Shown piece after piece: positions 2,489 through 19,047 of a DNA stretch of 64,000 nt. Made by a program: the position numbers and the translations under genes. Below the pieces are notes generated by a model. That model searched no databases. It was not told where the DNA came from and worked only from the letters and a program-made list of their open reading frames with translations. Source of the DNA: an uncultured Fibrobacteraceae bacterium (GTDB lineage: Bacteria; Fibrobacterota; Chitinivibrionia; Chitinivibrionales; Chitinispirillaceae); contig CAZYYB010000001.1 in the NCBI GenBank assembly GCA_964651515.1, positions 15,068-79,067 of the forward strand. Reading direction: 5' to 3'. Each line of letters starts with the position of its first letter. Position 1 is the first letter of the stretch.

Positions 2489-2661
2489 TAACGCACCCCC
2501 GCAACGCTCCCCCCTTAGGGAGAAAACACAAGAAAAAAAAGTTTCGTAGGGGCGACCTCCCACTAACCCGTTTTTCCTGAAGCCTGAGGTCGAAGCATTA
2601 AGTTTCAAGTTTTAAGTTGTTTTATTCCGTCCTCATACTTCATCCTTTTGTTTTCAAAACA

Positions 2662-2757
2662 TGCACGAAATGCACGTTTTTGATCATTAAATGGGGGTAA
2701 AAGTGGCGATATCGATCACGAAAACCCCTCTAATTGCACGAAATTTGCACGAAATTC
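2662..2757. repeat. Cluster of short direct repeats (T)GCACG(A/T)AA, including tandem TTGCACGAAAT x2
   Basis: Copies: tgcacgaaa 2662-2670, tgcacgttt 2671-2679, tcacgaaaa 2716-2724, ttgcacgaaat 2734-2744 and 2745-2755. The surrounding region is AT-rich and non-coding. Confidence 0.6.
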
Positions 2758-2886
2758 ACACTTAACTCATTGATTCAACCGAGAAATCGAATTTTTTATT
2801 TTTCATTTATTTTTTTCCGAGCCTCATTCCGGCAAAAATTGCCGGTTTTTCGACCTCCAAGGGGCTCCTCTCCGCCTCACCCCCGG

Positions 2887-2911
2887 CCCCTCTCCATAAA
2901 ATGGAGAGGGG
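2887..2911. repeat. Perfect 11-bp-stem hairpin, part of a dispersed CCGCCTCACCCC...GGAGAGGGG element
   Basis: CCCCTCTCCAT-AAA-ATGGAGAGGGG. The upstream CCGCCTCACCCC also occurs inverted at 45109-45148. Confidence 0.6.
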
Positions 2912-3432
2912 GGAGATCCGGGCATAGCTCACGCACCAGGTGCCGACGCCGATATTCCGACAATGTCAAAGAACAGGCGGCTGCCGGGGGCAGCGGCGCC
3001 GCCGCCACCCCCGAACCTTGCCGCAGCCTTTGTGAGCGCGAATACTCACTTCCCTTGAGCCACTCACCGGCCTGCGCCACGGTAGAGCTGCTACCCATCG
3101 ATAATATACACTAATTTTAAGTAAAAAGCAATAAAAATTATCAGAAATAATATTATGGGTTTAATGCTATGAAATAAAAAGAGATAAATACCATTATCCG
3201 ACATATTGAACCCCGTCGTTAAACTATAATATTGCTGACTGAGCGCGCCCACGCACCTGCAGCCGGGCCTTCAAGTTTGACGACAATTAAAATTTTGGGT
3301 CCCTGGAGCGTTTGGGATTATCGTGAACCTCCGATGAAAGGAGGTTGGATGATCAAAGACGAGCAAGTGAAAGGACTCATGACGGTTATGTCGTCTGGAA
3401 CCCCGTGGACACGGCGTGCCGTGACCCTGTCT

Positions 3433-3448
3433 CGGTTCATCCCCGCGC
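3433..3448 (-). CRISPR. Degenerate terminal (trailer) half repeat
   Basis: cggttcatccccgcgc equals the first 16 nt of the 29-bp repeat; the next 13 nt diverge. Confidence 0.6.
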
Positions 3449-3519
3449 TCGATCGCCTTGTCGACCCACCTGTTCAACGCGCGGTCGTCGATGCCGATAT
3501 CTATGGTTGCTCCGGCCAT
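3449..3519 (-). pseudogene. N-terminal fragment of a phage virion-morphogenesis-like gene, cut by the half repeat
   Basis: Minus-strand ATG at 3519 gives MAGATIDIGIDDRALNRWVDKAIE, then runs into the repeat. It resembles the fragment at 3712-3845 (MAGEAMEIKINDEDLL...). Confidence 0.4.
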
Positions 3520-3682
3520 TTGCTCCCTGCCCCGCGATAATGCCATTTTTTAATCAACGGATGGTTTGGCTCGGCACTTATACCGTCCGGGCGGGTCAGC
3601 GCTGTCGAAGAACGCTGATTGCCCCTTACTTCCGCTTGTATATCAGTTTTCCCGCCCGCTGCCTGTTCAGATAATCCAGATC

Positions 3683-3711
3683 CGGTTCATCCCCGCGCAT
3701 GCGGGGAACAT
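3683..3711 (-). CRISPR. Solitary full-length CRISPR repeat
   Basis: Exact 29-bp repeat, 221 bp from the half repeat and 398 bp from the next repeat. Confidence 0.9.
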
Positions 3712-3845
3712 CGCACGCTGTTGGTCATCACCTCGCCGATATTCTTCATGGCCGGGGACAGATCGTCGCCGCGCGCAAGCATGGCTCCGAGGCCATTTAA
3801 GAGGTCCTCATCATTAATCTTGATTTCCATCGCTTCGCCGGCCAT
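3712..3845 (-). pseudogene. Truncated phage virion morphogenesis protein (Mu G / P2 S-like), N-terminal 44 codons
   Basis: An SD (GGAGA) precedes the ATG at 3845. MAGEAMEIKINDEDLLNGLGAMLARGDDLSPAMKNIGEVMTNSV fits the family pattern (..I.I..D..L...L.....DL.P.M..IGE.L..S); the frame is cut at the repeat boundary. Confidence 0.55.
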
Positions 3846-4109
3846 GCTTGCATTATCTCCGTAAAAGGTCTATATTATGAACAGATGGGCGAACGGTGAT
3901 ATGCGCATCGATACCGTGAGCCGATGTTCGTGCAGGGCGCATCCTGCATAGTACTTTATTCTCCATACAAAAGTTTCCCTCTTCGTACCTTCGAATTCAG
4001 ATACTCAGGTTGTCCGGCAAAAAAATCGAATGATGCCCACATCCCGTTTCTTACTTCGGCGATAAAGGTCAGCCCCTTGGTTTTCTTTGCCTAGATGGCC
4101 TTGACATAT
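3712..4109. mobile_element. 398-bp block of phage-like DNA occupying one spacer slot
   Basis: Bounded on both sides by perfect repeats (3683-3711 and 4110-4138). Carries phage gene fragments on the minus strand. Confidence 0.7.
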
Positions 4110-5238
4110 CGGTTCATCCCCGCGCATGCGGGGAACATCGATATGGCGCTTACCGTGTGGAGGGCGTAACCGGTTCATCCCCGCGCATGCGGGGAACATC
4201 GCTGCCGTCGCATCGCCAACCTGGCGGATAACGGTTCATCCCCGCGCATGCGGGGAACATAGGGCATCTATCCTTCGGGCTCGCGCCGATCCCGGTTCAT
4301 CCCCGCGCATGCGGGGAACATCCGAGGAAGAGTTGCAGCTCGCGCGGGAAGAGCGGTTCATCCCCGCGCATGCGGGGAACATGTATCATGCCACATCATA
4401 CCCGTCAGAATATACGGTTCATCCCCGCGCATGCGGGGAACATTCCTTGGAACTGGATGGTGTCTGACAATGGGAAGCTTCATCCCCGCGCATGCGGGGA
4501 ACATTCGGGGAAGGCGCCGGTACCGCCGATCGATTGCGGTTCATCCCCGCGCATGCGGGGAACATCCCGCCGCTGCGGTCGCGGCGATAGCGCCGAAATC
4601 GTTCATCCCCGCGCATGCGGGGAACATCCACCTGGTCTGGGTGGGCTATGCAGCCATTCATGGTTCATCCCCGCGCATGCGGGGAACATATTGAAGTCGG
4701 TAATGCTCTCTACGCCCGATACGGTTCATCCCCGCGCATGCGGGGAACATCGCCGGCTGATGCAACGGGATTGGGCAGGGACCGGTTCATCCCCGCGCAT
4801 GCGGGGAACATATCGGCACATTCATTTTTCGAGTTCCAAGCGGCGGTTCATCCCCGCGCATGCGGGGAACATCGCTCGATGCCAGGGTTGCAGAGTGGAA
4901 CATGCGGTTCATCCCCGCGCATGCGGGGAACATGATCGGCACGGCAGCACGCATGTGGAGAGCATCGGTTCATCCCCGCGCATGCGGGGAACATAACTGC
5001 CGCACCAACGTTTTCCGGGCGGCATTCGGTTCATCCCCGCGCATGCGGGGAACATGCCCGCATCCTGCGAACGCTCCGGGAAGCGGTCGGTTCATCCCCG
5101 CGCATGCGGGGAACATAAACAGCCCGTTTTCTGGACCGGTCTCCGATTCGGTTCATCCCCGCGCATGCGGGGAACATATCTAAAATTAATTGCCTGATTT
5201 TATAAGCAGCGGTTCATCCCCGCGCATGCGGGGAACAT
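4110..5238 (-). CRISPR. CRISPR array segment A (older part): 19 repeats, 18 spacers
   Basis: 29-bp repeats at 61-bp period, with two 62-bp steps. Variant repeats start at 4476, 4599 and 4661. No leader of its own. Confidence 0.97.
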
Positions 5239-5402
5239 TTTTTGGCATTACCCCGGAGCAGGACGCCTGGCTCTCTCAGGAGGCCGAACGCCGCCAGATT
5301 AGCCGATCCGCTGTCGTCCGGGCACTGATCGACAAGGCACGGCAGGAGGGCGACCATGCCCTCCCCGCCAGTCGCTCGGTTTCCCGGCGCACAGCGTTAT
5401 AG
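5239..5402 (+). pseudogene. Ribbon-helix-helix (CopG/Arc-like) gene, 5'-truncated at the repeat
   Basis: FFGITPEQDAWLSQEAERRQISRSAVVRALIDKARQEG shows a beta-strand/helix/helix RHH pattern. There is no in-frame start after the repeat. Confidence 0.5.
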
Positions 5403-5508
5403 CATCAAAAAAACATTTAAGGCGCGATTTTGCCCGGAATTATATTATATGGTAATAGGCTAAACGGCCTAAAATCAAAACCTTACACATTCCATCAAGG
5501 AGGGGTAT

Positions 5509-5754
5509 ATGGCGAAGGTCACGGCGGAAATGGTTGCGGCGATCAAGGCAGGAACGGAATCTGTAACGTCAATTGCTACATCAGCGGGTGTCTCGCGGCA
5601 AGCGGTTTTTCAGATTATGAAAAAGTATTCAGCAAGCGAACCGGTCGCCCCAGCTGCTCCCGCCAAGGCTGCGAAGTCGGAACCAAAGAAGAGCAAGAAG
5701 GCTCCTGGCGAAATCCCCGAATCACAGCGCTTGCCGGAATCGGTCCCCGCGTAA
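5509..5754 (+). CDS. Small HTH DNA-binding protein (81 aa) with Lys/Pro-rich tail
   Basis: Strong SD (AAGGAGGGG) 4 nt upstream of the ATG. Upstream TTGCCC..TATATTATAT is promoter-like. HTH-like segment: SIATSAGVSRQAVFQIMKKY. Confidence 0.6.
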   Translation: MAKVTAEMVAAIKAGTESVTSIATSAGVSRQAVFQIMKKYSASEPVAPAAPAKAAKSEPKKSKKAPGEIPESQRLPESVPA

Positions 5755-5767
5755 TTCAACTTTCAAG

Positions 5768-5789
5768 GGGCCGGTAATCCCTCCGGCCC
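5768..5789. terminator. GC hairpin between convergent ORFs (possible bidirectional terminator, no clear U-tract)
   Basis: GGGCCGG-taatccct-CCGGCCC, a 7-bp stem. Confidence 0.35.
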
Positions 5790-5971
5790 TAATCCTCAAA
5801 AATGCTCAATTGGTCCTTGTCTTTAAATTCCTTTTTACCAAGCCACCATTTCCACAAATCTTCAGCCGTCGCATAGTGCTTTGCGAGAGTCCACTTCTCC
5901 TCTACCGCTTTTGCATGCAACCGCCATATCCAGCGTTTCCAGCTCGCAACAATGCGCGGGGCGACCTTCAT
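5789..5971 (-). CDS. Small Trp/Lys-rich hypothetical protein (60 aa)
   Basis: GAGGAGGG SD sits 2 nt before the ATG at 5971. Sequence MKVAPRIVASWKRWIWRLHAKAVEEKWTLAKHYATAEDLWKWWLGKKEFKDKDQLSIFED. Same orientation as the pre-crRNA. Confidence 0.4.
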   Translation of the reverse strand: MKVAPRIVASWKRWIWRLHAKAVEEKWTLAKHYATAEDLWKWWLGKKEFKDKDQLSIFED

Positions 5972-5996
5972 ACCCTCCTCATAGGCATGCGCACTG

Positions 5997-8900
5997 CGGT
6001 TCATCCCCGCGCATGCGGGGAACATCGGCACTCTCCATGACACCCTATGGCATTGAACGGTTCATCCCCGCGCATGCGGGGAACATTGAATCACCAGGCG
6101 TAAAGTAGCGCGCGCTGGCGGTTCATCCCCGCGCATGCGGGGAACATTCATCGGCATCACCCCCTTCTGTAGGTGTATTCGGTTCATCCCCGCGCATGCG
6201 GGGAACATTTTACAAGCCGGTTCATACAATTGGTAAGAGCCGGTTCATCCCCGCGCATGCGGGGAACATGAGCCGAGCTTGCCCATGCCCTCGAAGGTCT
6301 GCGGTTCATCCCCGCGCATGCGGGGAACATACCATTTCGCTTTCCTCTTCACCACGCCCAGCCGGTTCATCCCCGCGCATGCGGGGAACATTGGAGGGCG
6401 GGCACGCCCAGCGGATGATCTACCGGTTCATCCCCGCGCATGCGGGGAACATGTCGAAGTTCATTCCCCGCCGTCCATAGTATCCGGTTCATCCCCGCGC
6501 ATGCGGGGAACATATCGGCTGTCCGCACACCTCGCATTTGGTCTGCGGTTCATCCCCGCGCATGCGGGGAACATATCCCGGGAATGGTCCATTTATCCAG
6601 GCGCTGCGGTTCATCCCCGCGCATGCGGGGAACATCACGTCGCCGTTGGGTTTGGTTATCCCGCCGCCGGTTCATCCCCGCGCATGCGGGGAACATGGAT
6701 CGATCTGCGCCAGGGCGTGCGACGTGTCCGGTTCATCCCCGCGCATGCGGGGAACATGAGTTTCGCCTCACGGAGTTGAGTCAGTATGACGGTTCATCCC
6801 CGCGCATGCGGGGAACATACCATGATTGCCTCGCAGAGCGACAACCAGACCGGTTCATCCCCGCGCATGCGGGGAACATACTTCCACCAGCTTTACTGCC
6901 TCTTCTCCATACGGTTCATCCCCGCGCATGCGGGGAACATCCGCCTGCGGGCTCTTTGGCGCCCTCAAAAACCGGTTCATCCCCGCGCATGCGGGGAACA
7001 TCCCGTGCCGAATCCTATCGAAACGAGCGTCTCCGGTTCATCCCCGCGCATGCGGGGAACATAGTTCGGCGCTCCCCACCCGCACCCGTCGTCGCGGTTC
7101 ATCCCCGCGCATGCGGGGAACATGTGCCTCCTGGACTATGGTTAAGGGTTTACTACGGTTCATCCCCGCGCATGCGGGGAACATCGCATCCGGCAACCCG
7201 TAATAATTCCAGATAGCGGTTCATCCCCGCGCATGCGGGGAACATTTTTCAAACCCCTTGGATGCAATCCTTACATTCGGTTCATCCCCGCGCATGCGGG
7301 GAACATTTCCACTGGTGGCGAAATGCTCAGGACACAGCCGGTTCATCCCCGCGCATGCGGGGAACATCGGCGCATTTACAGGAGGCAGGCATACCCGGCC
7401 GGTTCATCCCCGCGCATGCGGGGAACATCTTATTGGAGCGGATATATTCCCAAACATCCGCGGTTCATCCCCGCGCATGCGGGGAACATTCGATAACCCG
7501 GACGGCCTTGATTGCCTCAGCCGGTTCATCCCCGCGCATGCGGGGAACATTTTCTTCATTGCGGTGAGGCCGTCGCTGAATGCGGTTCATCCCCGCGCAT
7601 GCGGGGAACATGCGAGCTGGTCAAGGTGTTTCTGGAAGTCGGCCGGTTCATCCCCGCGCATGCGGGGAACATTGTGAAGTGGTAGCGATGCGGAATTTTG
7701 GGAACGGTTCATCCCCGCGCATGCGGGGAACATCGGCGACTGTATGCGCTGCCGCGTTGGTGCCGCGGTTCATCCCCGCGCATGCGGGGAACATCTTATC
7801 AGCGGTTGACGAAAGAGTGGCAAAACCGGTTCATCCCCGCGCATGCGGGGAACATGGTAGTTGACCTTGCGGGCGTATCACCTCGGCCGGTTCATCCCCG
7901 CGCATGCGGGGAACATAGTGGGGTATCGAATTCGGGCACGTCAGCCCGCGGTTCATCCCCGCGCATGCGGGGAACATTTTCCTGAATCTGTCCTGCCATG
8001 ATGAGGCTCCGGTTCATCCCCGCGCATGCGGGGAACATCGCTTGGACTTTGGAGCGCGGTGACCGCCCGACGGTTCATCCCCGCGCATGCGGGGAACATG
8101 CGCCTATCTCGGGCAGATCACTATTTACATGCGGTTCATCCCCGCGCATGCGGGGAACATTTTTACTCCTGAGAGCTATCCCGTAGAGATGCAGGTTCAT
8201 CCCCGCGCATGCGGGGAACATAGCAGCTCGAATTTCCAGTCGATCGGCTTTGCCGGTTCATCCCCGCGCATGCGGGGAACATTGTATCCCTGACTATCTT
8301 CTCCATATCAGGGACGGTTCATCCCCGCGCATGCGGGGAACATCTGGGCGCGTGAGAAGCGCCGACAGTGGGGAGCGGTTCATCCCCGCGCATGCGGGGA
8401 ACATTGCGATTGTTCGCATTCGGCCATTGCAGCTACCGGTTCATCCCCGCGCATGCGGGGAACATGCGCACCTGAGCCGCTTCGTCATCGCTCAACCCGG
8501 TTCATCCCCGCGCATGCGGGGAACATTTCGAGTTGACGCGCGAAGAACATATTGTAACCGGTTCATCCCCGCGCATGCGGGGAACATCTGATTTCAGGGC
8601 TTGGAACATCGCACCATAACGGTTCATCCCCGCGCATGCGGGGAACATCCGTTATCCCATGCCACGGAAAAATCCCCAGCCGGTTCATCCCCGCGCATGC
8701 GGGGAACATCCTATATGTTATCAAATTAGATGGTTGGGAATCGGTTCATCCCCGCGCATGCGGGGAACATATGATGGGACATGATCGGCGGCTTTCCACG
8801 ACCGGTTCATCCCCGCGCATGCGGGGAACATGTGTTTTTCGGCGGCGCTGTCCATGACTCCCTAGGTTCATCCCCGCGCATGCGGGGAACATGCGGCTCC

Positions 8901-9502
8901 TGAATACATCAAGGCGGCGGCGTACGGTTCATCCCCGCGCATGCGGGGAACATGACAACTGCGCTTCGGCGAACCGCTGGACCTGCGGTTCATCCCCGCG
9001 CATGCGGGGAACATCTCTAATGCAATCTGGCAAGATAAACGGGTAGCGGTTCATCCCCGCGCATGCGGGGAACATTAATATCGGGGACCCTGTTTATTTG
9101 ACCTTGACGGTTCATCCCCGCGCATGCGGGGAACATATATACCATGGCAAAATAAGTTAGCCGAAACGCGGTTCATCCCCGCGCATGCGGGGAACATAAC
9201 TTGTTCTGGGAGAATGGTCCTGCCCGCACCGGTTCATCCCCGCGCATGCGGGGAACATTTGCGGGCTTGCGCCTGCGCTGCGGTGAGTGCCGGTTCATCC
9301 CCGCGCATGCGGGGAACATGGACCTTGAACCAAGGGCCTGAATTAATCGGCCGGTTCATCCCCGCGCATGCGGGGAACATATCTGAAGACTGATTGAAGA
9401 ATGCCGCCCCTTCGGTTCATCCCCGCGCATGCGGGGAACATGCAGAACCCAAAAACCCTATAATACGGCAAACCGGTTCATCCCCGCGCATGCGGGGAAC
9501 AT
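5997..9502 (-). CRISPR. CRISPR array segment B (leader-proximal): 58 repeats, 57 spacers, all 32 bp
   Basis: Strict 61-bp period from 5997 to 9474. The reverse complement ATGTTCCCCGCATGCGCGGGGATGAACCG resembles the E. coli I-E repeat. Variants at 8193 and 8864. Confidence 0.98.
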
Positions 9503-9630
9503 ACTAATATCTTTCTCATTGATTTTGCTCAAGATACAAATTTTGAAAAGTTCTACCGATTTTTTTTATCATCCAGAGATTTCAAAGAGCTTGCCTCTAT
9601 ACTTTACTTTCGATCGACCACGCTTCCTCG
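9503..9630 (-). promoter_or_regulatory. CRISPR leader (AT-rich)
   Basis: 128-bp AT-rich stretch between the last cas-operon gene and the first repeat, in the position and orientation typical of I-E loci. Confidence 0.7.
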
Positions 9631-10209
9631 TCAAATCGCCTTCCTTTTAGGTAAAAATGCATCCTTCGGCAGGCCAAGCGGCAACCCTTCAAGCACGATT
9701 TTCGCGCACGCGAGCGCATCCGATTTTGCATCGTGGTGCTTGAGCGGGATACCGAGCCGGTTGCATACGTTGGGCAGCTTTGTCGGGTAAATATCCCACA
9801 GGCGCCGGGCAAGCTTTACCGTGCACAGGAATTTGACCTCTGGAGGTTTGACCGCGGCGCCGAGGCAGCAGGAGTGCAACACGGACCGGTCAAACGATGC
9901 GTTGTGCGCCGCGATAAAGTCGACCTCATGCAGGAGCGACCGCATACCTGGCCACAGCTCGGCGAAATTCGGTTTCTCTGCGACGTCCTCCCAGGTGATT
10001 CCATGAATGTGGGTAAAGACAAAATCACGCCGCGGCGGACGGATCAGGGCATGCGCCTTGTGAACGATTTTCCCCTTTTCCACCACGACTATAGCCGCCG
10101 CACAGGCGCTGTCGCGACCCTGGTCGGCGGTCTCGAAATCGATTGCCGCGAATCTTTCAAGGGATTCACTTTTGGAAACTTTCGGCATTTTCTTTTTTGT
10201 TGCCGTCAC
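9631..10209 (-). CDS. Stand-alone DEDDh (DnaQ-like) 3'-5' exonuclease, last gene of the cas operon
   Basis: 192 aa. Exo I AIDFETAD, Exo II FIAAHNASFDRSVL, Exo III HHDAKSDALACAKI. Starts 6 nt after the cas2 stop. Confidence 0.85.
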   Translation of the reverse strand: MTATKKKMPKVSKSESLERFAAIDFETADQGRDSACAAAIVVVEKGKIVHKAHALIRPPRRDFVFTHIHGITWEDVAEKPNFAELWPGMRSLLHEVDFIAAHNASFDRSVLHSCCLGAAVKPPEVKFLCTVKLARRLWDIYPTKLPNVCNRLGIPLKHHDAKSDALACAKIVLEGLPLGLPKDAFLPKRKAI

Positions 10210-10215
10210 GATTCT

Positions 10216-11417
<1,202 letters not shown>

Positions 11418-11428
<11 letters not shown>

Positions 11429-11840
11429 AAAAAGCTCGCTTGAGCGGATCCGTCAGGCGCAGGAGTTCAACGAAATGGGTAAAGGAAAAACGGCGGACCA
11501 GCAGGGAGGCAGGGGCTGATAATTCCGTTGAAGGCAATTCCACGGTAACCAATGCAGAAATCTGCGGGTAGGTCCGGTAGAACTTCCTGAAAAGCTGGAG
11601 GTTCCTCGCAGAAAAACCGCGTCGGGCAATGGCACCTTCGTCACGCCGCCGTGCGAGGCGGGGAACCGGATTCGTTCCGTATTCAGCCCGGTCGCTGCCC
11701 GACCGCTCATACTCAACAATGTGCCTGCCGATCAGCCAGTTCCTGAAGGTGAGCGTTCGATTCACCGAACCGACGGCAACCCGGCCCATTGCCTCATGCA
11801 CCCGCCCGATTACCGTCGCCGGCTCTTCAAAAATTCCCAT
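11418..11840 (-). pseudogene. DUF1016_N (YhcG-like N-terminal domain) ORF lacking the PD-(D/E)xK nuclease half
   Basis: 140 aa. RTLTFRNWLIGRHIVEYE..RAEYG..GFSARNLQLFRKFYRTYP..FTHFVELLRL.DPLKRAFY matches the YhcG N-terminal pattern, then stops. Overlaps the cas1 start by 11 nt. Confidence 0.55.
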
Positions 11841-11920
11841 TATCCGAATTCCTTCTTACACCGGTTTCACGAGCAGGAGGCCGCAGCCGAAGGCCTTGGC
11901 GGGACCGGGGAGCGGCGTCT

Positions 11921-12610
11921 TCATTCCGCATAAGCCATTCTTACCCTGCGGGGTGAAAACCTTCTATTATCAGATGCAAATGAAACCGGAATATCCGGCA
12001 ATGAATCGCGTCCCTCCGCAAAAGTTTCGGCATCTTCCTGGAAGGTATACTTTTCCAACGCATCTATTTTCAGCAATCGCAGGGCGTCCTCTTTGGATGT
12101 TGCCATGCCGGCAAGCACCGGTGCCGTCGGGATACAGCTCTTGCGGCCGAGCCATATTCCCCAGACCGGATCGGCCAACCCGGCAGCTATCTTTTCTAAT
12201 ACTTCCGGCTTTCCCTCAAGAATCACGCCGAACATTGCATCGGAGAGATAACCTCGGTGAGTAATATGGCATGGTTTGGCATTTCCATCGGCAGTCACGG
12301 TATTTAGCACCGTATGATAATCCTGCAGACGACGAACCTTTAATACCTCCTTTTTAATCTGGTCCTTAAACTTTTTATCGACAATGCGGGGTATGGCGAT
12401 TGAAATCATTCGAAGACCCCTAAATTCCTCAAGAAATCGGCTCTCCTCAGAACCTCCACGGTTATACCCCAGCGCGGCGCAGCATATGCCGCCGATGGCG
12501 CTCTTTGTCGGCATGAGTCCGGTATTGCGGCGGTTGTATTGGCTGTCGAAACCCCAGGATTGCAGAGGACCCTCCAGACGAAGGGCCAGAAAGCGGCCAT
12601 TAATTGACAT
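11921..12610 (-). CDS. cas5: Cascade subunit Cas5e (CasD)
   Basis: FLALRLEGPLQSWG...NTGLMPTKSAIGGICCAALG. The start at 12610 is preferred (alternative 12637). Overlaps the cas7 stop. Confidence 0.9.
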   Translation of the reverse strand: MSINGRFLALRLEGPLQSWGFDSQYNRRNTGLMPTKSAIGGICCAALGYNRGGSEESRFLEEFRGLRMISIAIPRIVDKKFKDQIKKEVLKVRRLQDYHTVLNTVTADGNAKPCHITHRGYLSDAMFGVILEGKPEVLEKIAAGLADPVWGIWLGRKSCIPTAPVLAGMATSKEDALRLLKIDALEKYTFQEDAETFAEGRDSLPDIPVSFASDNRRFSPRRVRMAYAE

Positions 12611-13637
12611 GTGTCGCCACCTCGTCGAGGAAGGCATTCATGCCGACATCGGGAATTGCTTTTTCGAAAATAGCCTTTACGCCCCAGGTGTTATTGAGTT
12701 TTTCATATTCCTCTTTGAGAAGATCGATGGATTTTTGCGCATATCCCTGCATCGAGCGCACGGGGCTCTCAAAGGCATTGGAAAGCTGAATCGGATGACC
12801 TGTTTCTCGAACCACACCGAGGACATAGGCGGGAAGAGTATTCCCGTTCATGGTATTCTTTCGTGCGCAGGGAATCGCTTTTATCGTCGCTTCTACAAAG
12901 GTGCGAACGACATTCTGCCTATCCTCCCTGCTCAAGCTTCCCAGATGCGCCGCATCCGCGAGCATATCGAGGTTGAGAGCGGCAAACCGATAATAGGTCG
13001 CGGAATTGAATTCAATGGTGCTTGTCATGCCCGCGCCGGATTCTTCCTTGGATTGCAAGTCGTCCACGGCGGAAAAAAAATCGATCTCATTATCGACCTT
13101 ATGTGTCGAAAGTGCATGCGAAAACATCGATGCAGCTTCAACGGTCAATGTATGATCATTGGCAACCATACGTCCAAAAATAGAAATATCGGCCGCATCA
13201 TTAATTGCTTTCCCATTGATTGATTTTATGGCCTTTTTTACATCCTTGGTTGCAAAATAGGCCTTAGCTATAGTTTCCAATTCAAGCGGCGACATGAAAT
13301 AAAGAGTTTTGGATTTGACCTTATCGGTGGACTTTTCATCAATTTTTACCAATGCATCAACAATGCTCTTTGAGGCATCCAATGCCTCGGTTTCACCTAA
13401 CCCGGTAGATTTCATTGCATTAAAAAGCGGCTCAAACATTAGTCGTGTTCGTTCACCCTTATAGTGCTTTGGTAAAATCTCCTTTGCTATTTCCCGTATC
13501 GCCCGTTTCCACGACTGGCTTGATACCCTCGCTCGCTGAACACCTCCGAAAACTGCGGTCTTAGGCGAGTTGAGGTCATCGCGATTGAGGCAGGAAACCG
13601 GTACCGACTGAATGATGTGAAGTTCCAGATGTTTCAT
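12600..13637 (-). CDS. cas7: Cascade backbone subunit Cas7e (CasC/Cse4)
   Basis: 345 aa. N-terminus: MKHLELHIIQSVPVSCLNRDDLNSPKTAVFGGVQRARVSSQSWKRAIR. Confidence 0.92.
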   Translation of the reverse strand: MKHLELHIIQSVPVSCLNRDDLNSPKTAVFGGVQRARVSSQSWKRAIREIAKEILPKHYKGERTRLMFEPLFNAMKSTGLGETEALDASKSIVDALVKIDEKSTDKVKSKTLYFMSPLELETIAKAYFATKDVKKAIKSINGKAINDAADISIFGRMVANDHTLTVEAASMFSHALSTHKVDNEIDFFSAVDDLQSKEESGAGMTSTIEFNSATYYRFAALNLDMLADAAHLGSLSREDRQNVVRTFVEATIKAIPCARKNTMNGNTLPAYVLGVVRETGHPIQLSNAFESPVRSMQGYAQKSIDLLKEEYEKLNNTWGVKAIFEKAIPDVGMNAFLDEVATHVN

Positions 13638-13665
13638 TGTTCTTCTCCTTATGGTTTATAATTGT

Positions 13666-14352
13666 TTAAAAATTCACCGGAGACAACAAAAAAAGGCCGA
13701 ATCCAAATCCTTTGGCGCTGCCGATGCCCTGATGATAAGTTGCTTCGAATTTTTCCGAATCCGTCACTTCGAGCGTTCCGCGAAACTGGACGCCGCCATG
13801 ATAGCCATAATGATCTTTTTTTCGGAAGTAACGTTCTGCCATGGGTCTGATTTCAAGCGGTTTCTCTTCAACTATCCGAAATCCGCCGGGAACATCAACG
13901 CCGGTATTGCAATCCTTGCATCGCACGTTCCCTTTTTGAGTAATCCAGGCACGAAGCTCTTCCCGGTCAACAAGTGGTATTCGTTTGCCATGTTCTCGTT
14001 TTCCATTCGGGCGTCGGAGCGTTTCCCCATTCGGGCCTCTCAGGACTTTTGTTTTAGTCGGATTGGCCCACAGATCGAAAGCGTAAAAACGATGTCGCAG
14101 AAAAGATGGGGCGATCTCCTTAAGGGAAAACCTTTCCTGTAAACACCAATCAGGACGCCTCGGCCGACAGCGGGCAAGCAACCATAGACGAAATGCGCCT
14201 TCGACGATATCGATACGGGACAGGAAATCCCGTTTCTTATCTGGCTGGTCGGGAAAACATTCCCACAGCCTTTGATGCCAGAAATAGGAATCGACAATTC
14301 CTTTGGAAATAGCATTTTTTGCATCCATTTCCATGCGGACGAGCCAGCTCAT
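13666..14352 (-). CDS. cas6e: pre-crRNA endoribonuclease Cas6e (CasE)
   Basis: 228 aa with C-terminal GIGSAKGFGFGLFLL motif. Overlaps cse2 by 4 nt. Confidence 0.88.
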   Translation of the reverse strand: MSWLVRMEMDAKNAISKGIVDSYFWHQRLWECFPDQPDKKRDFLSRIDIVEGAFRLWLLARCRPRRPDWCLQERFSLKEIAPSFLRHRFYAFDLWANPTKTKVLRGPNGETLRRPNGKREHGKRIPLVDREELRAWITQKGNVRCKDCNTGVDVPGGFRIVEEKPLEIRPMAERYFRKKDHYGYHGGVQFRGTLEVTDSEKFEATYHQGIGSAKGFGFGLFLLSPVNF

Positions 14353-14843
14353 ACAACCTCCGCTTCATCACCGGAAACCGCATGAGGTGCCCAGAATGCC
14401 ATGCCCCATTCGGTTTTGGTACGGTCGTTCCAATAGCGCAGGTCCGACAAAAGTTTTTCGTAATTGACCGAAATGCTCTGTGCCTTTGCCATGAAAACCA
14501 TGCGGGCAATACGCTCATGAAGTTCATTTCCCGGTTCGGCGGAAAGCAGATGCTGAAAGCGACGTTCCGTTGGGGTGAGTTTGTTATCGTCGCTTCGCTT
14601 CTCACTCCGCCTTTGTTCGATAATTCTGCAAGTGTTCCCAAAGTTTCCCGATGGCGTTTCATCAGGATGGGCGGAAAAAAGCCCGGCAACGAGAGTTGCA
14701 ATATCGTCGCCGATATCGATACCCATTCGGTTGAGCACCGGCCATGCTCGATGTTTTTTGCTTTCCACCAGCACACACCGAAGATTGGCCATCATACCAC
14801 GGTTATCGGCGTAGCGACGGATTCGCTCCAAAAGCGTACTCAT
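14349..14843 (-). CDS. cse2: Cascade small subunit Cse2 (CasB/Cas11e)
   Basis: 164 aa and helical, placed between cse1 and cas6e with 4-nt overlaps on both sides. Confidence 0.85.
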   Translation of the reverse strand: MSTLLERIRRYADNRGMMANLRCVLVESKKHRAWPVLNRMGIDIGDDIATLVAGLFSAHPDETPSGNFGNTCRIIEQRRSEKRSDDNKLTPTERRFQHLLSAEPGNELHERIARMVFMAKAQSISVNYEKLLSDLRYWNDRTKTEWGMAFWAPHAVSGDEAEVV

Positions 14844-16408
14844 GCTTCGACCTCCTTGTGTTCGGGTGTGTCGGATTCGGCCTTTTTTTCTGATAGTAAT
14901 CTCTGAAAGCCTTTTGCAAAAGCGCGCATCCGGCGCGGCGATTCACAACCGCATGCAACGCGAAAGGCATCGCAGGCTGTTGCAAAAAGCATTTTTCTCC
15001 ATGCATCGCGCGTAGGGAGTGCCGCGTCGGTGTCAATGGCCGCTATATGTGACATGAGCAGCGGAAGGTTCTTTTCAACGGTGGTCCAGTAATGAACAGT
15101 TGCAAGAGAATGGAGCTTAGCCTTGAGAGCACCCTTAGCAGGTCCTGCGCTTTTTAATTGGCCTTCCCATCCGCCGTCGATTTCAGTACGATATACTTCA
15201 ATCGCCCAGCCAAGGCGGCCGGCAACAGTTTCTGCATTACGTACTTCTTCCTCATATATAATATGTCCATCAGCGGAAAGAAGCTTTGCCGGAATATGAA
15301 ATACCGATTCTGAAGTATCAACAATAGTTGCCTGATCGCGAGCTAATGCGGAAACAACCAAATCGCATTCCTCACCTTCCTGCAGTGCGCAAAGCGAAAG
15401 AGGGCCACCTAACCCATTTGCGGCACGCTTGGTGACCACGGCGGAAAGCTCCCGCCAAAGTGCACGAGAGGGTCGATATGAAAGCAGGATTCTTTCTTCT
15501 TTTTTGGCGATCTTTCGGATCAAAACAGTAGCGCTTGGCTCAGGCGGAAACCCATTGGAGTAGGGCGGGTATTCCAACCCATCGCCTAATAACATTTTGG
15601 AACCGGCCTGGTGAAGCAAAATCAACCGGGTCATTGGAACCAATCTGCCTATATAAGTCTGTGTCGCATTGGCTATTCCGGCTGTATCGGAAAACGAACC
15701 AGGTGGGCATTCCCATACTGGATTCCCTATGCCCAGATTTCCGTAACTTGACCGGATATCATCATAGGAGGGTAAATTCAGGCGAAGCGATTCAAGCAGG
15801 TTTTCACCGCGCAAAAAAGCGTGAATCATTGACGCTGAAACGCAAGGGCCGTCCTTTGATGATTTTCCCGTTTGGGCGTTATTCCAGTATACCTGTGAAA
15901 TAAGCCCGCCCGGAGAAAAACACTGAAAGGTAATCATTGAAACGAGGGTCTCACTTATAGAAATGCTGCGATTGATGGCCATTCCCGCATGGTCAAAGAA
16001 TGTGGTATTATTGCCGGTAGATAATGAAAAATTGAGTTTTGAAACCGGCGACCATAAGGATAAATCATCCTTCGAAATCTCTTCTTGGTTTTTTGATAGG
16101 CCGGTTATCTGAAGCCATGGCTTCTTTTTATGGAACAATTCAAATGATTCTTTCCATTCCTTTAAATATCTTCGGACTGCCTCGGGCAATTTTTTAGGCA
16201 CCTCGCGCCACTCATTATAATCCTTCGGCCCGTTAAGTGCAGCATGGGCAACACAGAGGAAAAGCCTCATGAGCGCGACGCGTTCATGGGGCCGAACCGA
16301 TAAATCTGCAAAACGATCTCCCTTGGTGAGCACCTCGCAGAGGCTTGCCAATTCCGGCACTCCTTCTGAAGTTACTACCGGAATCCACGGATCAAAGGCA
16401 ACATTCAT
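14840..16408 (-). CDS. cse1: Cascade large subunit Cse1 (CasA/Cas8e)
   Basis: 522 aa. N-terminus: MNVAFDPWIPVV...RPHERVALMRLFLCVAHAAL. Overlaps cas3 by 4 nt. Confidence 0.9.
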   Translation of the reverse strand: MNVAFDPWIPVVTSEGVPELASLCEVLTKGDRFADLSVRPHERVALMRLFLCVAHAALNGPKDYNEWREVPKKLPEAVRRYLKEWKESFELFHKKKPWLQITGLSKNQEEISKDDLSLWSPVSKLNFSLSTGNNTTFFDHAGMAINRSISISETLVSMITFQCFSPGGLISQVYWNNAQTGKSSKDGPCVSASMIHAFLRGENLLESLRLNLPSYDDIRSSYGNLGIGNPVWECPPGSFSDTAGIANATQTYIGRLVPMTRLILLHQAGSKMLLGDGLEYPPYSNGFPPEPSATVLIRKIAKKEERILLSYRPSRALWRELSAVVTKRAANGLGGPLSLCALQEGEECDLVVSALARDQATIVDTSESVFHIPAKLLSADGHIIYEEEVRNAETVAGRLGWAIEVYRTEIDGGWEGQLKSAGPAKGALKAKLHSLATVHYWTTVEKNLPLLMSHIAAIDTDAALPTRDAWRKMLFATACDAFRVACGCESPRRMRAFAKGFQRLLSEKKAESDTPEHKEVEA

Positions 16409-19047
16409 ACATCCTCCCCGCCGGTTGATTTCTCGATAACGAGCCCCAATTTATCCGTGTAAATAAAACGGATACCATCTTTTAATCCTTCAACTTCGAC
16501 AAATCCATTTTCTCCTACGACCGCAACACTTTGTGCACCGTGAAGATAGGCAGAAAACGTCAGGCAGGGCTCCACGTGTTCAAAGCAGTATGCAGGAACC
16601 TTCACCAGATTTTTATGGATCGCCTGAGCAGTCGCAAGCCGGAATTCATCGCCGCCAATGCTGCCTCGGGTAGCATCAAAAAAAATGGCTTCATTTTCTG
16701 AAAGTTCATGGCATAGCACAATCGAAACGGTCGGCATATCGTTAAGACGGGTTTGCACGCCCTCTTCGTCCGGCAACTGCAACTGCCAGTAGTTGCTGTT
16801 CAACAGGGCTTTGAATCGTTTATTCGAATCACTGACAAATCTATCATCAATCAGTTTCTGCCAGGATTCAGGGTCATCATCACGTTCCCGGTAGGTTGCT
16901 TCAAGAATTTCCCTGATTTGTCCCGGAATTTTTATGCAAGGATAGTCTTGCCATGTTTGCAAAGTTCGAAGCAGGACAAAAGGATCATAAACACGTGCCT
17001 TGCCGCCAAGAGTCTCCATTATTTCCCTAGATTTCATATCTCGAAACTCTTTAAGGCATTTTTCTTCTTCGATGATAATTATTTGCGGTTCCTTAACAGG
17101 ACGATTTCCCCTTTTGTGACGCCACAATCGGCCGAGTCGCTGCAAGAGCATATCGGTGGGTGCTAGCTCGGTAATCATCAAATCGGCATCGAGGTCGACA
17201 CTCTGCTCAACAATTTGCGTCGAAACCAGAATTGAGCCGCATCTAGTATCGCTGCTTTTCCCAAGTCGTTCCATCCATTCGTTTTCAAGTTTCTCGCGCC
17301 GGTGGAATGGAAAGCGTGAATGGAGCAGGCCGAGGCGAATACCCTTTCCTGAAAATTCTTTAAACCGACGGAATTGGTTCTGCGCTCCATTAACAGTATT
17401 GCAAATCCAGAGAATGCATCCGCCTTTTTCGGCAAGTTCAATGGCCTTCTCCATAGCCTGGCCTTCGGATTTAAAACTTACCTGCACTTCGAGCGAACCC
17501 GGCGGCGTCGCCGGGACCGGATTCAGCAGTATTTCCCCTTGCCGCCCCGAAACAAGCGGATACGGCAGATTTGAATCATCTTCGGCCGCATTATTGCCGG
17601 AGGCGATGATTTGTCCGCGTCGTTTTCCCGTAAGTGTGGCAGACAGAATAATTACCGTACATCCCAGGCCCTCAAGGGATCTTATCAGTTTATCTATCAG
17701 CGTACCGGTATACAAGTCGTATGAATGTACTTCATCAATAACAACCACTTTTCCCGCCAGAGCAAAATGGCGGACAAAGAAATGCTTTGCCGCGACTACT
17801 CCGAGAAGCGCCTGATCAACAGTACCGACCCCAAACGGAGCGAGCAAAGCTCGCTTTGACGATGCAAACCAGTCTCGGCCATAACGGGCATCATTACTTG
17901 CAGAACAAATGCCCGTAGCGACAGGAGCGATGCCGGCATCGGCGTCCATCAGCCAGGAATTACCATGAATAAGTCGAATCCTATTAGATTCCGGTGAAAT
18001 TCGACTTATGAATTCATTCACCCGAAGATGTATGCGGTTACTCGTTGCCTGGGTCGGGAGCGCGAAATATATGCCCGTTGCCTTCCCTTCGGCAAGCAAT
18101 AGGTAAGCAGCCCATAACGCAGCCTCGGTTTTGCCCATGCCCATTGGGGCCTCTATAACATAAACACCGGGTGCAGTTATTGCCGCAGCCGTTTTCGCCT
18201 GCATGTCATTTGGTGACCAAATGATTCCAGGTTTTTTTCTATCAAGGAATAATTCATGAAAGGAAAGACCGTGAATAATTTCGGGCCTTTTGAATCCAAT
18301 AGTGCGGAGTGCTTTACTGGCAGATTCATCGGGGTCGAATGCCGCCGTATTGGGATCAGATCGGAAGAATCTTTCATCCGATCCTATCCAGTCCGCCACC
18401 GAGGTAAGGCCTGCAAGCCACCAAAGTGCAGGTAAGGAATCATTGATCTCCGTGATTTCAGTATTGCCGGCAAAAACACGCCATACATTTCGTGCTGCGG
18501 TATCTCTTTCTTTTTCCCAATCGATGCCGCTCCTGTTTTCTGAGATCGCCCCTTGCGGGTGGTAACCACGATCATTTGGAGGATTCAAACGGCCATGATG
18601 TCCACCCAGCACCGCCGATAAAAATTTTGCCGTTTTACAATCGCTGCATAGCTCCGATAGAAAATTTTGGATAGCGGCATGGGAAACTTTTCCATGGTCT
18701 GATTCCATACGGGTATCCCAGCAACCATTTCGGGCAATACCCGATAACCCATTCTCCTCAAGCCAGGTTGTGCACTTCATTTGAAATCCGGGTGATATTT
18801 TGCCGAGATCATGCAGGGCCGCAAGCGCCCCGACTTCGGCAGAATTTAATTGAAAGCGTTCAAGAAGATTTTTTGAAAGTTCAGCCATTCGCAGCGCAAC
18901 ATATCCTACATTAGTCATGTGTTCCGTAACGGAAATTCCCGGCTTATCCTCAGAAGTTGTTTTAGCCCAAAAATGGTTATTTGTCACACTTACCCCCTGC
19001 GGCGACATCTGAGCAAGGATACGGCAGAAAAAAATTCCGGTAGTCAT
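16405..19047 (-). CDS. cas3: Cas3 HD nuclease/SF2 helicase
   Basis: 880 aa. HD region (LHDLGKISPGFQ), Walker A (APMGMGKTEAAL) and DEVH box (IDEVHSYD). Confidence 0.95.
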   Translation of the reverse strand: MTTGIFFCRILAQMSPQGVSVTNNHFWAKTTSEDKPGISVTEHMTNVGYVALRMAELSKNLLERFQLNSAEVGALAALHDLGKISPGFQMKCTTWLEENGLSGIARNGCWDTRMESDHGKVSHAAIQNFLSELCSDCKTAKFLSAVLGGHHGRLNPPNDRGYHPQGAISENRSGIDWEKERDTAARNVWRVFAGNTEITEINDSLPALWWLAGLTSVADWIGSDERFFRSDPNTAAFDPDESASKALRTIGFKRPEIIHGLSFHELFLDRKKPGIIWSPNDMQAKTAAAITAPGVYVIEAPMGMGKTEAALWAAYLLLAEGKATGIYFALPTQATSNRIHLRVNEFISRISPESNRIRLIHGNSWLMDADAGIAPVATGICSASNDARYGRDWFASSKRALLAPFGVGTVDQALLGVVAAKHFFVRHFALAGKVVVIDEVHSYDLYTGTLIDKLIRSLEGLGCTVIILSATLTGKRRGQIIASGNNAAEDDSNLPYPLVSGRQGEILLNPVPATPPGSLEVQVSFKSEGQAMEKAIELAEKGGCILWICNTVNGAQNQFRRFKEFSGKGIRLGLLHSRFPFHRREKLENEWMERLGKSSDTRCGSILVSTQIVEQSVDLDADLMITELAPTDMLLQRLGRLWRHKRGNRPVKEPQIIIIEEEKCLKEFRDMKSREIMETLGGKARVYDPFVLLRTLQTWQDYPCIKIPGQIREILEATYRERDDDPESWQKLIDDRFVSDSNKRFKALLNSNYWQLQLPDEEGVQTRLNDMPTVSIVLCHELSENEAIFFDATRGSIGGDEFRLATAQAIHKNLVKVPAYCFEHVEPCLTFSAYLHGAQSVAVVGENGFVEVEGLKDGIRFIYTDKLGLVIEKSTGGEDV

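Follow-up and report, generated by a model that had tools for sequence, protein, structure and literature searches.

An oversized, phage-filled spacer slot in a type I-E CRISPR array and two candidate routes to its origin

CRISPR arrays are taken to store only fragments measured by a ruler. The closest described system to the one reported here is SiL-E1 (Jaubert et al. 2013, PMC3718332), a pseudo-spacer of ~2 kb enclosed by perfect repeats in CRISPR_2 of Sulfolobus islandicus LAL14/1; faulty protospacer processing and recombination with pre-existing spacers were put forward as its candidate mechanisms. According to the account given in PMC8616872, recombination between spacers and protospacers has been demonstrated experimentally in staphylococci (Varble 2019). 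ΦAP1.1, a prophage of S. pyogenes, is integrated into CRISPR repeats (Varble et al., bioRxiv 10.1101/2020.10.09.333658), and viruses carry mini-CRISPR arrays or solitary repeat units (Faure 2019, Medvedeva 2019; RNA anti-CRISPRs, PMC10651486). Long “spacers” from IS or transposon insertion, seen as gaps of at least 100 nt, have been described in E. coli, P. aeruginosa, and S. thermophilus (Kupczok et al. 2015, PMC4524480). The initial annotation of the present locus knew of no mega-spacers described as a regular outcome of type I-E immunity; given the ~2-kb pseudo-spacer published for Sulfolobus islandicus in 2013 (PMC3718332), that claim of novelty was too strong.

The DNA analyzed (the window) is a 64-kb stretch from an uncultured Fibrobacteraceae bacterium, and it carries the following features.

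3683-9502, minus strand: type I-E CRISPR array, 78 repeats and 75 spacers of 32-33 nt
9503-9630, minus strand: AT-rich leader
9631-19047, minus strand: complete I-E cas operon (DnaQ-like exonuclease, cas2, cas1, cas5, cas7, cas6e, cse2, cse1, cas3)
3683-3711, minus strand: trailer-proximal repeat flanking block 1, perfect copy
4110-4138, minus strand: leader-proximal repeat flanking block 1, perfect copy
3712-4109, minus strand: block 1, a pseudo-spacer of 398 bp, one unbroken piece of a Mu-like phage (3′ end of F, intergenic region, 5′ end of G)

The repeats at 3683-3711 and 4110-4138 stand last in the array on its trailer side, and both are perfect 29-nt copies of CGGTTCATCCCCGCGCATGCGGGGAACAT, whose reverse complement, ATGTTCCCCGCATGCGCGGGGATGAACCG, has a form typical of type I-E. 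This form, the side on which the leader lies, and the minus-strand cas operon together indicate that the minus strand is the transcribed one, in agreement with the first reading of the locus. Spacer lengths are 32-33 nt in all but two slots. As that reading had also stated, 398 bp lie between the two perfect repeats in place of one spacer, and both junctions fall at repeat/spacer boundaries. Block 1 has full repeats on both sides, as a canonical type I-E spacer does, but not the length of one (398 bp vs. 32-33 nt in the 75 other spacers). Like a pseudo-spacer of the SiL-E1 type, it consists of long contiguous element DNA, is collinear with a known element family, and is enclosed by perfect repeats inside a continuing array.

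An identical 398-bp block occupies the same slot in two other assemblies, JGI 3300041809 and ENA ERZ27250145, which argues that block 1 is not a chimera. The neighboring spacers and the trailer around it are likewise the same in these three assemblies from different data, and the ENA contig (k141) has three SNPs in repeats. The junctions, for which an assembly chimera had initially been considered, are thus reproduced, and the oversized phage-filled slot is a real, rare structure.

Three features were recognized within block 1.

3714-3845, minus strand: putative Mu G / P2 S-type virion morphogenesis gene (PF05069 family), first 44 codons; the frame enters the repeat and stops at 3687
3857-3860 (plus-strand CTCC), minus strand: GGAG Shine-Dalgarno-like motif, 11 nt upstream of the ATG
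3956-4108, minus strand: F-PBECR2 head protein gene, last ~50 codons; the repeat cuts its 5′ side

The G-type reading frame begins at the ATG at 3845 and translates as MAGEAMEIKINDEDLLNGLGAMLARGDDLSPAMKNIGEVMTNSV before running into the repeat, so that a Shine-Dalgarno motif ahead of the start and a frame broken at the repeat, both part of the original description, were recovered. General profiles match this fragment weakly (PF05069, E = 0.24 over profile positions 2-34, 11.7 bits vs. a 24.3-bit cut-off; phrog_26 in PHROG, E = 0.1); with 44 codons against ~148 positions in the full-length domain, it holds only the part of the domain left by the repeat. A custom G HMM built from genes following Mu F in IMG/VR phages matched at E = 4e-10 across HMM positions 1-44, a support that is partly circular because the source loci were chosen through tblastn matches to this same fragment. 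Four of the source genes were checked and match PF05069 at E = 1e-24 to 1e-35. Together these matches support the initial identification of the ORF as the N-terminus of a Mu G / P2 S-type protein. The trailer contains no G-like frame, and a G gene continuing past the repeat was therefore rejected.

The F fragment matched the C-termini of phage F proteins by tblastn (E = 1.5e-5) and Pfam PBECR2 at profile positions 75-119 of 120 (E = 0.015); it retains its native stop at 3956-3958 and has an in-frame TAG at 4091-4093. An F C-terminus upstream of a G start is the gene order of Mu-like phage loci, many of which have the G homologue directly downstream of F, with G ~3.4 kb further away in two (L034 and L038). 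Phage ORFs extend to both edges of block 1, and there is no close source DNA for alignment. Judged by gene content and order, block 1 is genuine invader DNA, a contiguous F-to-G piece of a Mu-like phage.

Block 1 is not unique, and the same array contains further material of this kind.

5239-5996: block 2, a pseudo-spacer of 758 bp flanked by perfect repeats at 5210-5238 and 5997-6025
3449-3682 (234 bp), minus strand: block 0, a probable third pseudo-spacer, partly deleted
3433-3448, minus strand: half repeat (16/16 nt) joining block 0

Block 2 contains part of an RHH gene, one complete HTH gene of 81 aa on the plus strand (5509-5754), and part of an ORF on the minus strand, with ORFs severed at both of its ends. 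Block 0 carries a second, different G-type N-terminus, MAGATIDIGIDDRALNRWVDKAIE, at 3448-3519; it ranks second among the matches of the G HMM across the window (E = 0.39, HMM positions 1-29), and its tblastn matches fall on the same G starts as those of the block 1 fragment. The half repeat joins block 0 in register with the RGD motif of G, suggesting that this join arose by a microhomology (GCGCGG) deletion. Outside this lineage, a Desulfobacterales MAG has two phage blocks of 1.1-1.2 kb between the same repeats, the newest of which is flanked by repeats that differ in the loop (GTGT vs. GCAT). The closest homologue recovered in a source search for one of them (MAG block A) is 66% identical. 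Neither block 1 nor block 2 matches any other sequence in the 64-kb window, and a self-derived block was rejected on this basis; a known RNA family was likewise rejected after an Rfam scan with 0 matches.

The positions that bear on a spacer origin of the block ends are as follows.

3744-3746, minus strand: AAG (plus-strand CTT), directly 5′ of the last 32 nt of block 1
3712-3743, minus strand: trailer-proximal 32 nt, hypothetical old spacer or protospacer anchor
4078-4109, minus strand: leader-proximal 32 nt, hypothetical newer spacer, whose PAM would lie outside the block

The prediction that an AAG should stand just 5′ of the trailer-proximal 32 nt holds, and block 1 thereby has what a recombination product should have, a PAM 5′ of a terminal spacer-length segment. 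AAG occurs at 12 of 396 positions on the minus strand of the block (3.0%), and a single match at spacer distance is suggestive, not strong. The triplet is the Lys codon of a conserved PAMKNIGE motif in G. The putative anchor starts within a stretch of 21-25 nt whose DNA sequence does not vary among G genes that are otherwise 35-40% identical in protein, a conservation that would suit it to broad-range targeting.

AAG can reasonably be taken as the PAM of this repeat, since the PAM-derived G is retained in 73 of the 78 array repeats and a viral mini-array with the same repeat has a spacer whose homologous site (26/32) is preceded by AAG. No protospacers for PAM definition were found when the whole array was compared with GenBank phages and 521 spacers with all fetched loci. 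An internal AAG was present in one of the four testable blocks: block 2 has GAG at the corresponding position, and the Desulfobacterales MAG blocks have GAA and GTT.

Searches for the source phage, whose recovery had been proposed at the outset, found none for block 1 among GenBank phages (BLAST), in IMG/VR, or in a 5.8-billion-protein collection, and contigs that the repeat retrieved from metagenomes and genomes did not contain the block. A protein word search with the 44-aa fragment returned the array copy itself as its sole match. Exact scans of IMG/VR were negative for a 24-mer from the putative old spacer and, for a conserved 21-mer of G, yielded one G gene not related to the block. For block 2, a protein search gave array copies only, and searches of IMG/VR, plasmids, and phages were negative. 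The junction between trailer and half repeat had 0 matches in a metagenome scan of a collection that does not include the block-bearing samples.

Alleles carrying the block ends as ordinary 32-bp spacers, which had also been anticipated, did not appear among 521 spacers from same-repeat arrays (0/521) or in any covering contig, a thin sampling. Every contig spanning the region, again a thin sample, carries the block, and no block-free allele was present among arrays from repeat scans of genomes and metagenomes. One further locus (L107) was considered as an example of spacer-anchored recombination and rejected because its sequence departs from the array 21 nt into a spacer, against the model; a chimera or deletion is more likely there.

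Spacer-anchored recombination with phage DNA, the origin proposed in the initial annotation, is the leading explanation of block 1, held tentatively. The array would once have contained two ordinary spacers against the same strand of one phage. The older (now 3712-3743) would have adjoined the AAG in the conserved PAMKNIGE segment of G, and the newer (now 4078-4109) would have lain ~330 bp upstream of it. Such a two-spacer, same-strand geometry is typical of primed type I-E adaptation. During infection, phage DNA, probably a Cas3-generated or replicating fragment, would have paired with both spacers, and a double crossover or gene conversion through host RecA or a phage single-strand annealing protein would have exchanged the repeat or repeats between them for the phage DNA between the two protospacers. 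The two ancestral spacers and the recombination step are what we infer from the block as it now stands. With its in-frame TAG in the F fragment, block 1 looks like a decaying fossil, and its persistence probably reflects slow repeat-repeat deletion, which proceeds far less readily when the repeats stand 427 bp apart than when the distance is 61 bp.

The intact repeat edges, the cut ORFs, the collinear F and G fragments, and the AAG exactly 32 nt from the end all support spacer-anchored recombination. Against it, blocks 0 and 1 represent the same region of two different phages, so that the model needs matching spacer pairs for both. As a general mechanism with a PAM fidelity of ~0.9, recombination also fits one AAG in four blocks worse than chance does. 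With this count, no source phage, and no ordinary-spacer allele, it is possible as the origin of block 1, at somewhat less than even probability. Of the capture first proposed, the invader DNA, the repeat-edge junctions, and the AAG stand, and spacer-anchored recombination is a possible mechanism. Block 1 is a well-documented rare structure; the present data do not demonstrate a new mechanism.

Faulty adaptation is nearly as likely. Here Cas1-Cas2 would have inserted a phage fragment of excess length at the leader-proximal repeat and, as in normal acquisition, duplicated that repeat, with the PAM end processed normally and the PAM-distal end left untrimmed to the 33-nt ruler, for instance through a lapse in DnaQ-like trimming or through a long fragment looped between the two Cas1 active sites. 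Later acquisitions would have moved the block trailer-ward, and the internal AAG would be a coincidence. A single mechanism would then cover blocks with and without an internal AAG, all of which are flanked by perfect repeats, and one AAG among four blocks is expected by chance in ~9% of cases. Both block 1 and block 2 lie at old array positions (slots 1 and 20 of 77), and the locus has its own DnaQ-like exonuclease gene adjoining cas2. In MAG block A, the codon beyond the leader-proximal end is PAM-compatible (AAG, AAA, GAA, or GAG) in 8 of 14 homologous phages, and the authors of the Sulfolobus case proposed the same route (PMC3718332). This origin has to contend with the strict type I-E ruler, with searches of open-access literature that turned up no report of integrated fragments hundreds of bp long, and with a 3% coincidence to put an AAG in block 1 at precisely 32 nt from its end. 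Simple duplication would moreover need a later change to account for the differing repeats (GTGT vs. GCAT) around the newest MAG block. An internal PAM would also be expected if Cas1-Cas2 had measured the PAM-distal end and failed to cut at the PAM.

A less probable origin, and one we consider unlikely, is repeat-mediated exchange with a phage or plasmid carrying the same repeat as a mini-array, a solitary repeat, or a repeat-mimicking attP, followed by loss of most of the element down to a repeat-bounded remnant; in a variant, the block would have formed in an element-borne array and moved by repeat-repeat recombination. In its favor, an IMG/VR phage contig carries a mini-array with the identical repeat, AT-rich DNA holds a stand-alone pair of repeats around a 121-nt spacer, and I-E-like repeat pairs are present in GenBank phages. 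Phage ΦAP1.1 of S. pyogenes integrates into CRISPR repeats (bioRxiv 10.1101/2020.10.09.333658), and recombination between a viral solitary repeat and a host array has already been proposed (PMC8616872). However, block 1, block 2, and MAG block A all end within phage or mobile-element genes, cut at arbitrary codons on both sides, and a viable element would not keep repeats in structural genes such as F and G. That both ends of block 1 cut phage ORFs argues against att-site integration and against an intergenic phage mini-array as the source. The repeat was found in 0 of 80 Mu-like phage loci around F and G, there is neither an integrase nor att-like asymmetry, and the block was never seen on a viral contig.

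That phage reads were chimerically joined to the array at its repeats is very improbable, for although CRISPR arrays are hard to assemble from short reads, block 1 recurs with the same slot and neighbors in three assemblies (the ENA contig with repeat SNPs of its own), block 2 is in the same slot of five further contigs, and no free-standing phage contig with either block was found.

Two kinds of insertion were rejected. In line with the original view that the block did not arrive by transposition, it has no transposase and no terminal inverted repeats, the only palindromes at its ends being those of the CRISPR repeats. A prophage of the ΦAP1.1 type at the repeat is incompatible with 398 bp, no integrase, and ends that both lie inside F and G.

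In a wider reading, which we regard as doubtful, kb-scale pseudo-spacers would be a recurrent by-product of type I-E immunity arising via protospacer anchors, not one-off accidents. Primed spacer pairs may then become the phage DNA between their targets, such blocks may resist repeat-repeat deletion and outlast normal spacers, and the end state would be an orphan array of blocks only, as in the Desulfobacterales MAG. Blocks 0 and 1 place two different G 5′ fragments side by side in sense orientation, each with its own start codon. More boldly, these G fragments might be kept by selection, as truncated assembly proteins or long guide RNAs that might interfere with Mu-like phages. If arrays do take in hundreds to thousands of base pairs of invader DNA through a CRISPR-dependent route, this would show either that the Cas1-Cas2 ruler can fail or that a pathway of recombination links spacers and their targets; such a pathway could reshape arrays and carry phage genes into hosts. 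It would also account for “interrupted” or “orphan” arrays that annotation pipelines split or drop.

Compared with the insertions compiled by Kupczok et al., whose long spacers are mostly transposon-like, block 1 lacks a transposase, terminal inverted repeats, and a target duplication. It shares with ΦAP1.1 the placement of phage DNA between two CRISPR repeats of a host array, but ΦAP1.1 is a whole inducible prophage with an integrase, a repeat-matching attP, and an anti-CRISPR gene, whereas block 1 is a 398-bp fragment that ends in structural genes and has no integrase. With the viral mini-arrays the link is the repeat itself, which an IMG/VR phage contig carries in a repeat-spacer-repeat unit, the spacer there matching the homologue of a neighboring phage gene; those units are short and virus-borne, whereas block 1 is long and sits in a 78-repeat host array beside a full cas operon.

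In staphylococcal systems, a single crossover is said to move the CRISPR locus into transducing phage particles. The likeness to spacer-protospacer recombination (Varble et al. 2019, Nat Microbiol) is that 30-35 bp of homology reportedly suffices for recombination between phage and array in vivo; the outcome described there involves one crossover, and no double crossover by which phage DNA would stay behind in the array.

SiL-E1 remains the nearest relative. In both cases, over-long mobile-element DNA collinear with a known element family lies between perfect repeats in an otherwise ordinary array, with junctions at the repeat edges, and the same two mechanisms are in play. SiL-E1 is archaeal (Sulfolobus) and ~2 kb long, carries five conjugative-plasmid ORFs, and stands as a single case from one strain. 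The present system is a bacterial type I-E array with blocks of 398, 758, and probably 234 bp, alongside blocks of 1.1-1.2 kb in a second lineage. Most of these blocks are pieces of phage structural genes, and in one of them a PAM lies inside the block at spacer distance, a testable signature that divides the two mechanisms open since the Sulfolobus case of 2013.

The phage-derived insert reported by the initial annotation lies in the array of a complete type I-E CRISPR-Cas locus. We call over-length mobile-element DNA between CRISPR repeats a pseudo-spacer; the relevant features are as follows.

3433-3448: half repeat (16 of 16 nt), beyond block 0
3449-3682: block 0, candidate third pseudo-spacer, 234 bp, downstream of the last full repeat
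3683-9502: type I-E CRISPR array, transcribed on the minus strand, 78 repeats, plus-strand repeat CGGTTCATCCCCGCGCATGCGGGGAACAT
3712-4109: block 1, pseudo-spacer of 398 bp
5239-5996: block 2, pseudo-spacer of 758 bp, flanked by perfect repeats at 5210-5238 and 5997-6025
9503-9630: AT-rich leader
9631-10209, minus strand: separate DnaQ-like RNase_T exonuclease gene, between cas2 and the leader
10216-10509, minus strand: cas2
Minus strand: complete type I-E operon with cas3, cse1, cse2, cas6e, cas7, cas5, cas1, cas2 and the DnaQ-like exonuclease gene

The type I-E form of the repeat is evident in its reverse complement, ATGTTCCCCGCATGCGCGGGGATGAACCG. The position of the leader and the strand of the cas operon indicate that the array is transcribed on the minus strand, as the initial annotation had assumed, placing the trailer (oldest) end at 3683. 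Some type I-E systems have a Cas2-DnaQ fusion, of which this exonuclease gene is the stand-alone counterpart. Seventy-five spacers measure 32-33 nt; the two exceptions are blocks 1 and 2, each between perfect repeats. In type I-E systems the terminal G of the repeat comes from the PAM, as established for E. coli, and here it is kept in 73 of the 78 repeats. The PAM-derived end deviates in the repeats at 4476, 4599, 4661, 8193 and 8864, giving a rough estimate of ~93% for PAM fidelity; those at 4599 and 4661 come after 33-nt spacers, as slipped acquisitions would predict. Downstream of the trailer, the region 2580-3240 is AT-rich and apparently non-coding (~49% GC vs. 59% for the window).

The 398-bp slot was found exactly where first described, as was its ORF (ATG at 3845, GGAG 11 nt upstream, 44 codons ending at the repeat edge). 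The 44-residue fragment gave weak matches to Pfam (PF05069 Phage_tail_S, E = 0.24, profile positions 2-34) and PHROGs (phrog_26, E = 0.1). Among 80 Mu-like phage loci collected around F, the gene for the Mu F-PBECR2 head protein, it matches, in many, the beginning of the ORF that immediately follows F (tblastn, E down to 5e-6), and the four such ORFs tested are all bona fide PF05069 proteins (E 1e-24 to 1e-35). An HMM of these downstream ORFs ranked the fragment top among 1,796 six-frame pieces of the window (E = 4e-10, HMM positions 1-44), a partly circular result because the set was picked by similarity to the fragment; with that reservation, its assignment to the N-terminus of a Mu G / P2 S-type virion morphogenesis protein (gene G) is supported. 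The upstream 264 bp encode, on the same strand, the last ~50 residues of the F-PBECR2 protein (tblastn E = 1.5e-5 to phage F protein C-termini; Pfam PBECR2 positions 75-119 of 120, E = 0.015), interrupted by an in-frame TAG at 4091-4093. With the F C-terminus upstream of the G N-terminus on one strand, block 1 is a contiguous, collinear piece of a Mu-like phage, comprising the F 3′ end, the intergenic region with a Shine-Dalgarno motif, and the G 5′ end. The repeat edges truncate both genes, and the block carries one or more decay mutations, in keeping with the proposal of invader DNA in a spacer slot. Block 1 has no match to an Rfam family.

A 52-aa ORF across the block/repeat junction is recorded in JGI 3300041809 (23-kb contig) and ENA ERZ27250145 (k141 contig). 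In each, a 398-bp block of identical sequence fills the corresponding slot, and the neighbouring spacers, the trailer and block 2 also agree with the window. Three SNPs private to the ENA contig lie in its repeats and mark it as independent data. An assembly artefact, which would make the junctions chimeric, is rejected on this reproduction of block 1 in two further assemblies, and we consider it extremely improbable. Block 2 occupies the same slot with identical sequence in five further contigs (JGI 3300041809, ENA ERZ27250145, JGI 3300014199, ENA ERZ27249945 and Ga0181517). Its contents are a fragment of an RHH gene, an intact HTH (transposase-like) gene of 81 aa and part of an ORF on the minus strand, with ORFs cut at both ends as in block 1.

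Block 0 starts the ORF MAGATIDIGIDDRALNRWVDKAIE on the transcribed strand. Across the window, the G HMM ranks this ORF second (E = 0.39, alignment beginning at HMM position 1), and the ORF's tblastn matches share G start coordinates with those of block 1. Reading on into the half repeat, it encodes RGDEP, which lines up in frame with RGDD in the block 1 protein; GCGCGG is common to the half-repeat DNA and the RGD-motif DNA of G. Block 0 is thus a probable third pseudo-spacer, derived from a different Mu-like phage and later shortened by microhomology deletion into the terminal repeat.

A genome-wide repeat scan recovered three such repeats in a Desulfobacterales MAG (JAXGJZ010000005), with gaps of 1,199 and 1,117 bp. 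One MAG block combines a Mu F-PBECR2 gene that lacks its first ~125 codons with the initial 48 codons of the head gene that follows; the second block holds the N-terminal part of a tape-measure-like gene (weak match). Every ORF that extends as far as a repeat edge is cut there. The unit is joined to a type I-C array at that array's trailer end, and no I-E cas genes occur within 10 kb of the unit. At least eight contigs of different origin carry it without change (L099, L111-L117). It looks like an orphan I-E array with kilobase "spacers" as its sole survivors. Its middle repeat has the loop GCAT vs. GTGT in the outer two, and four of the contigs (L111-L114) have an extra 719-bp AT-rich stretch reaching a degenerate repeat.

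A phage mini-array occurs in IMGVR_UViG_3300043783_000043 (L003, 939-1028), where a 32-nt spacer separates a variant repeat from an exact copy of the window repeat. In AT-rich DNA of contig Ga0172381_10012441 (L092, 131-309), two repeats stand alone around a 121-nt spacer, and the second of them shows compensatory stem changes (CCCAGC...GCTGGG). One short contig (L107, 83-103) tracks a related array (L103) and departs after 21 nt of spacer into a TetR-like gene, reflecting either a chimera or a rearrangement with its breakpoint inside the spacer. Short matches to the array's repeat units in Ralstonia phages YO077_2 (ON170130.1) and YO134_1 (ON170227.1) and Saccharomonospora phage PIS 136 (JX006077.1) suggest that these cultured phages probably carry type I-E-like mini-arrays.

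The mini-array spacer of L003 has a homologous site (26 of 32 nt) in a small gene ~130 bp away in the same phage, as conflict between related viruses would predict. This site is preceded by AAG which, with the retained terminal G of the window repeats, makes AAG a sensible PAM for this repeat. Counting from the trailer-proximal end of block 1, an AAG is found at a distance of exactly 32 nt (plus-strand CTT at 3744-3746), as initially claimed. This triplet encodes the Lys of G's conserved PAMKNIGE motif, and the 21-25 nt around it (3733-3765) are identical in G genes with 35-40% protein identity (L056, L036/L037, L118), hinting at DNA-level constraint or a recombination hot spot over these codons. 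AAG occupies 3.0% of positions on that strand of block 1. The equivalent triplet is GAG in block 2, and GAA and GTT in the two MAG blocks; the chance of one AAG in four blocks is roughly 9%. Given acquisition fidelity near 0.9, an origin of all four blocks from PAM-flanked spacers fits worse than chance, and block 1 may be PAM-anchored if mechanisms are mixed. Of 14 homologous phages, 8 have AAG, AAA, GAA or GAG as the codon immediately beyond the leader-proximal end of MAG block A, compatible with the outer PAM that both leading models predict.

These models, the same pair proposed for a Sulfolobus case, are spacer-protospacer recombination and over-length Cas1-Cas2 integration. In the first, two spacers would have undergone recombination or gene conversion with their protospacers, a process that occurs in vivo (Varble 2019, as described in PMC8616872). 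It accounts for the internal AAG and agrees with the arrangement of targets that primed type I-E adaptation produces, where the newer spacer is upstream of the older and on the same strand. We favour it for block 1 tentatively, at somewhat less than an even chance: the AAG, its sole direct and weak evidence, is present as the initial annotation observed, but absent in the other three blocks, and no alleles with ordinary spacers in place of blocks were found among contigs covering the region or repeat-scanned loci. A comparison of the block ends with 521 spacers, drawn from arrays that share the window's repeat, likewise gave no match.

Erroneous integration of an over-length fragment by Cas1-Cas2 is only slightly less probable. 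This single mechanism would cover all blocks, although it needs a 3% coincidence for the block 1 AAG; a half-processed prespacer, with its PAM recognised and uncut, also leaves an internal PAM, so that AAG is not a unique pointer to recombination. Repeat-mediated exchange with a mobile element is unlikely. No source phage or element of any block was found in GenBank phages and plasmids, IMG/VR, pattern-scanned metagenome and genome contigs, or a 5.8-billion-protein collection (for the MAG F fragment, the closest homologue shares 66% identity), nor did these searches find block 1 on a viral contig, with or without flanking repeats. Together with assembly artefact, these routes take up most of the probability, the remainder falling to others. 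The arbitrary cuts through structural genes at both ends disfavour integration at a repeat-mimicking att site and recombination with an intergenic viral mini-array and, with neither terminal inverted repeats nor a transposase in block 1, agree with the initial dismissal of transposition; intact repeats on both sides disfavour end joining.

Oversized blocks are enriched at old array positions and are sole survivors in the orphan MAG array, which we infer is best explained by resistance to deletion, since repeats 0.4-1.2 kb apart delete less readily than those 61 bp apart.

The observation is thus confirmed and extended, with spacer-anchored recombination as one of two live hypotheses. The recurrence of the structure is notable: one array holds three blocks, with two G 5′ fragments next to each other, and a second lineage has blocks as well. 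The PAM signature makes a question of mechanism open since 2013 testable. The presumed novelty of such spacers was overstated: although no account of phage-derived pseudo-spacers from bacterial type I-E arrays turned up in a search largely confined to open-access literature, pseudo-spacers as such have precedent. Spacers of at least 100 nt, mostly transposon-like, occur in E. coli, P. aeruginosa and S. thermophilus arrays (PMC4524480), and related phenomena include prophage integration into repeats (bioRxiv 10.1101/2020.10.09.333658), viral mini-arrays and solitary repeats (PMC8616872), and RNA anti-CRISPRs (PMC10651486). The closest precedent is SiL-E1 of S. islandicus LAL14/1, a ~2-kb pseudo-spacer of pING1-like plasmid DNA between perfect repeats, with no unaccounted bases and its mechanism left open (PMC3718332). 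No new mechanism is demonstrated by the window blocks, which represent a rare known structure, better documented here.
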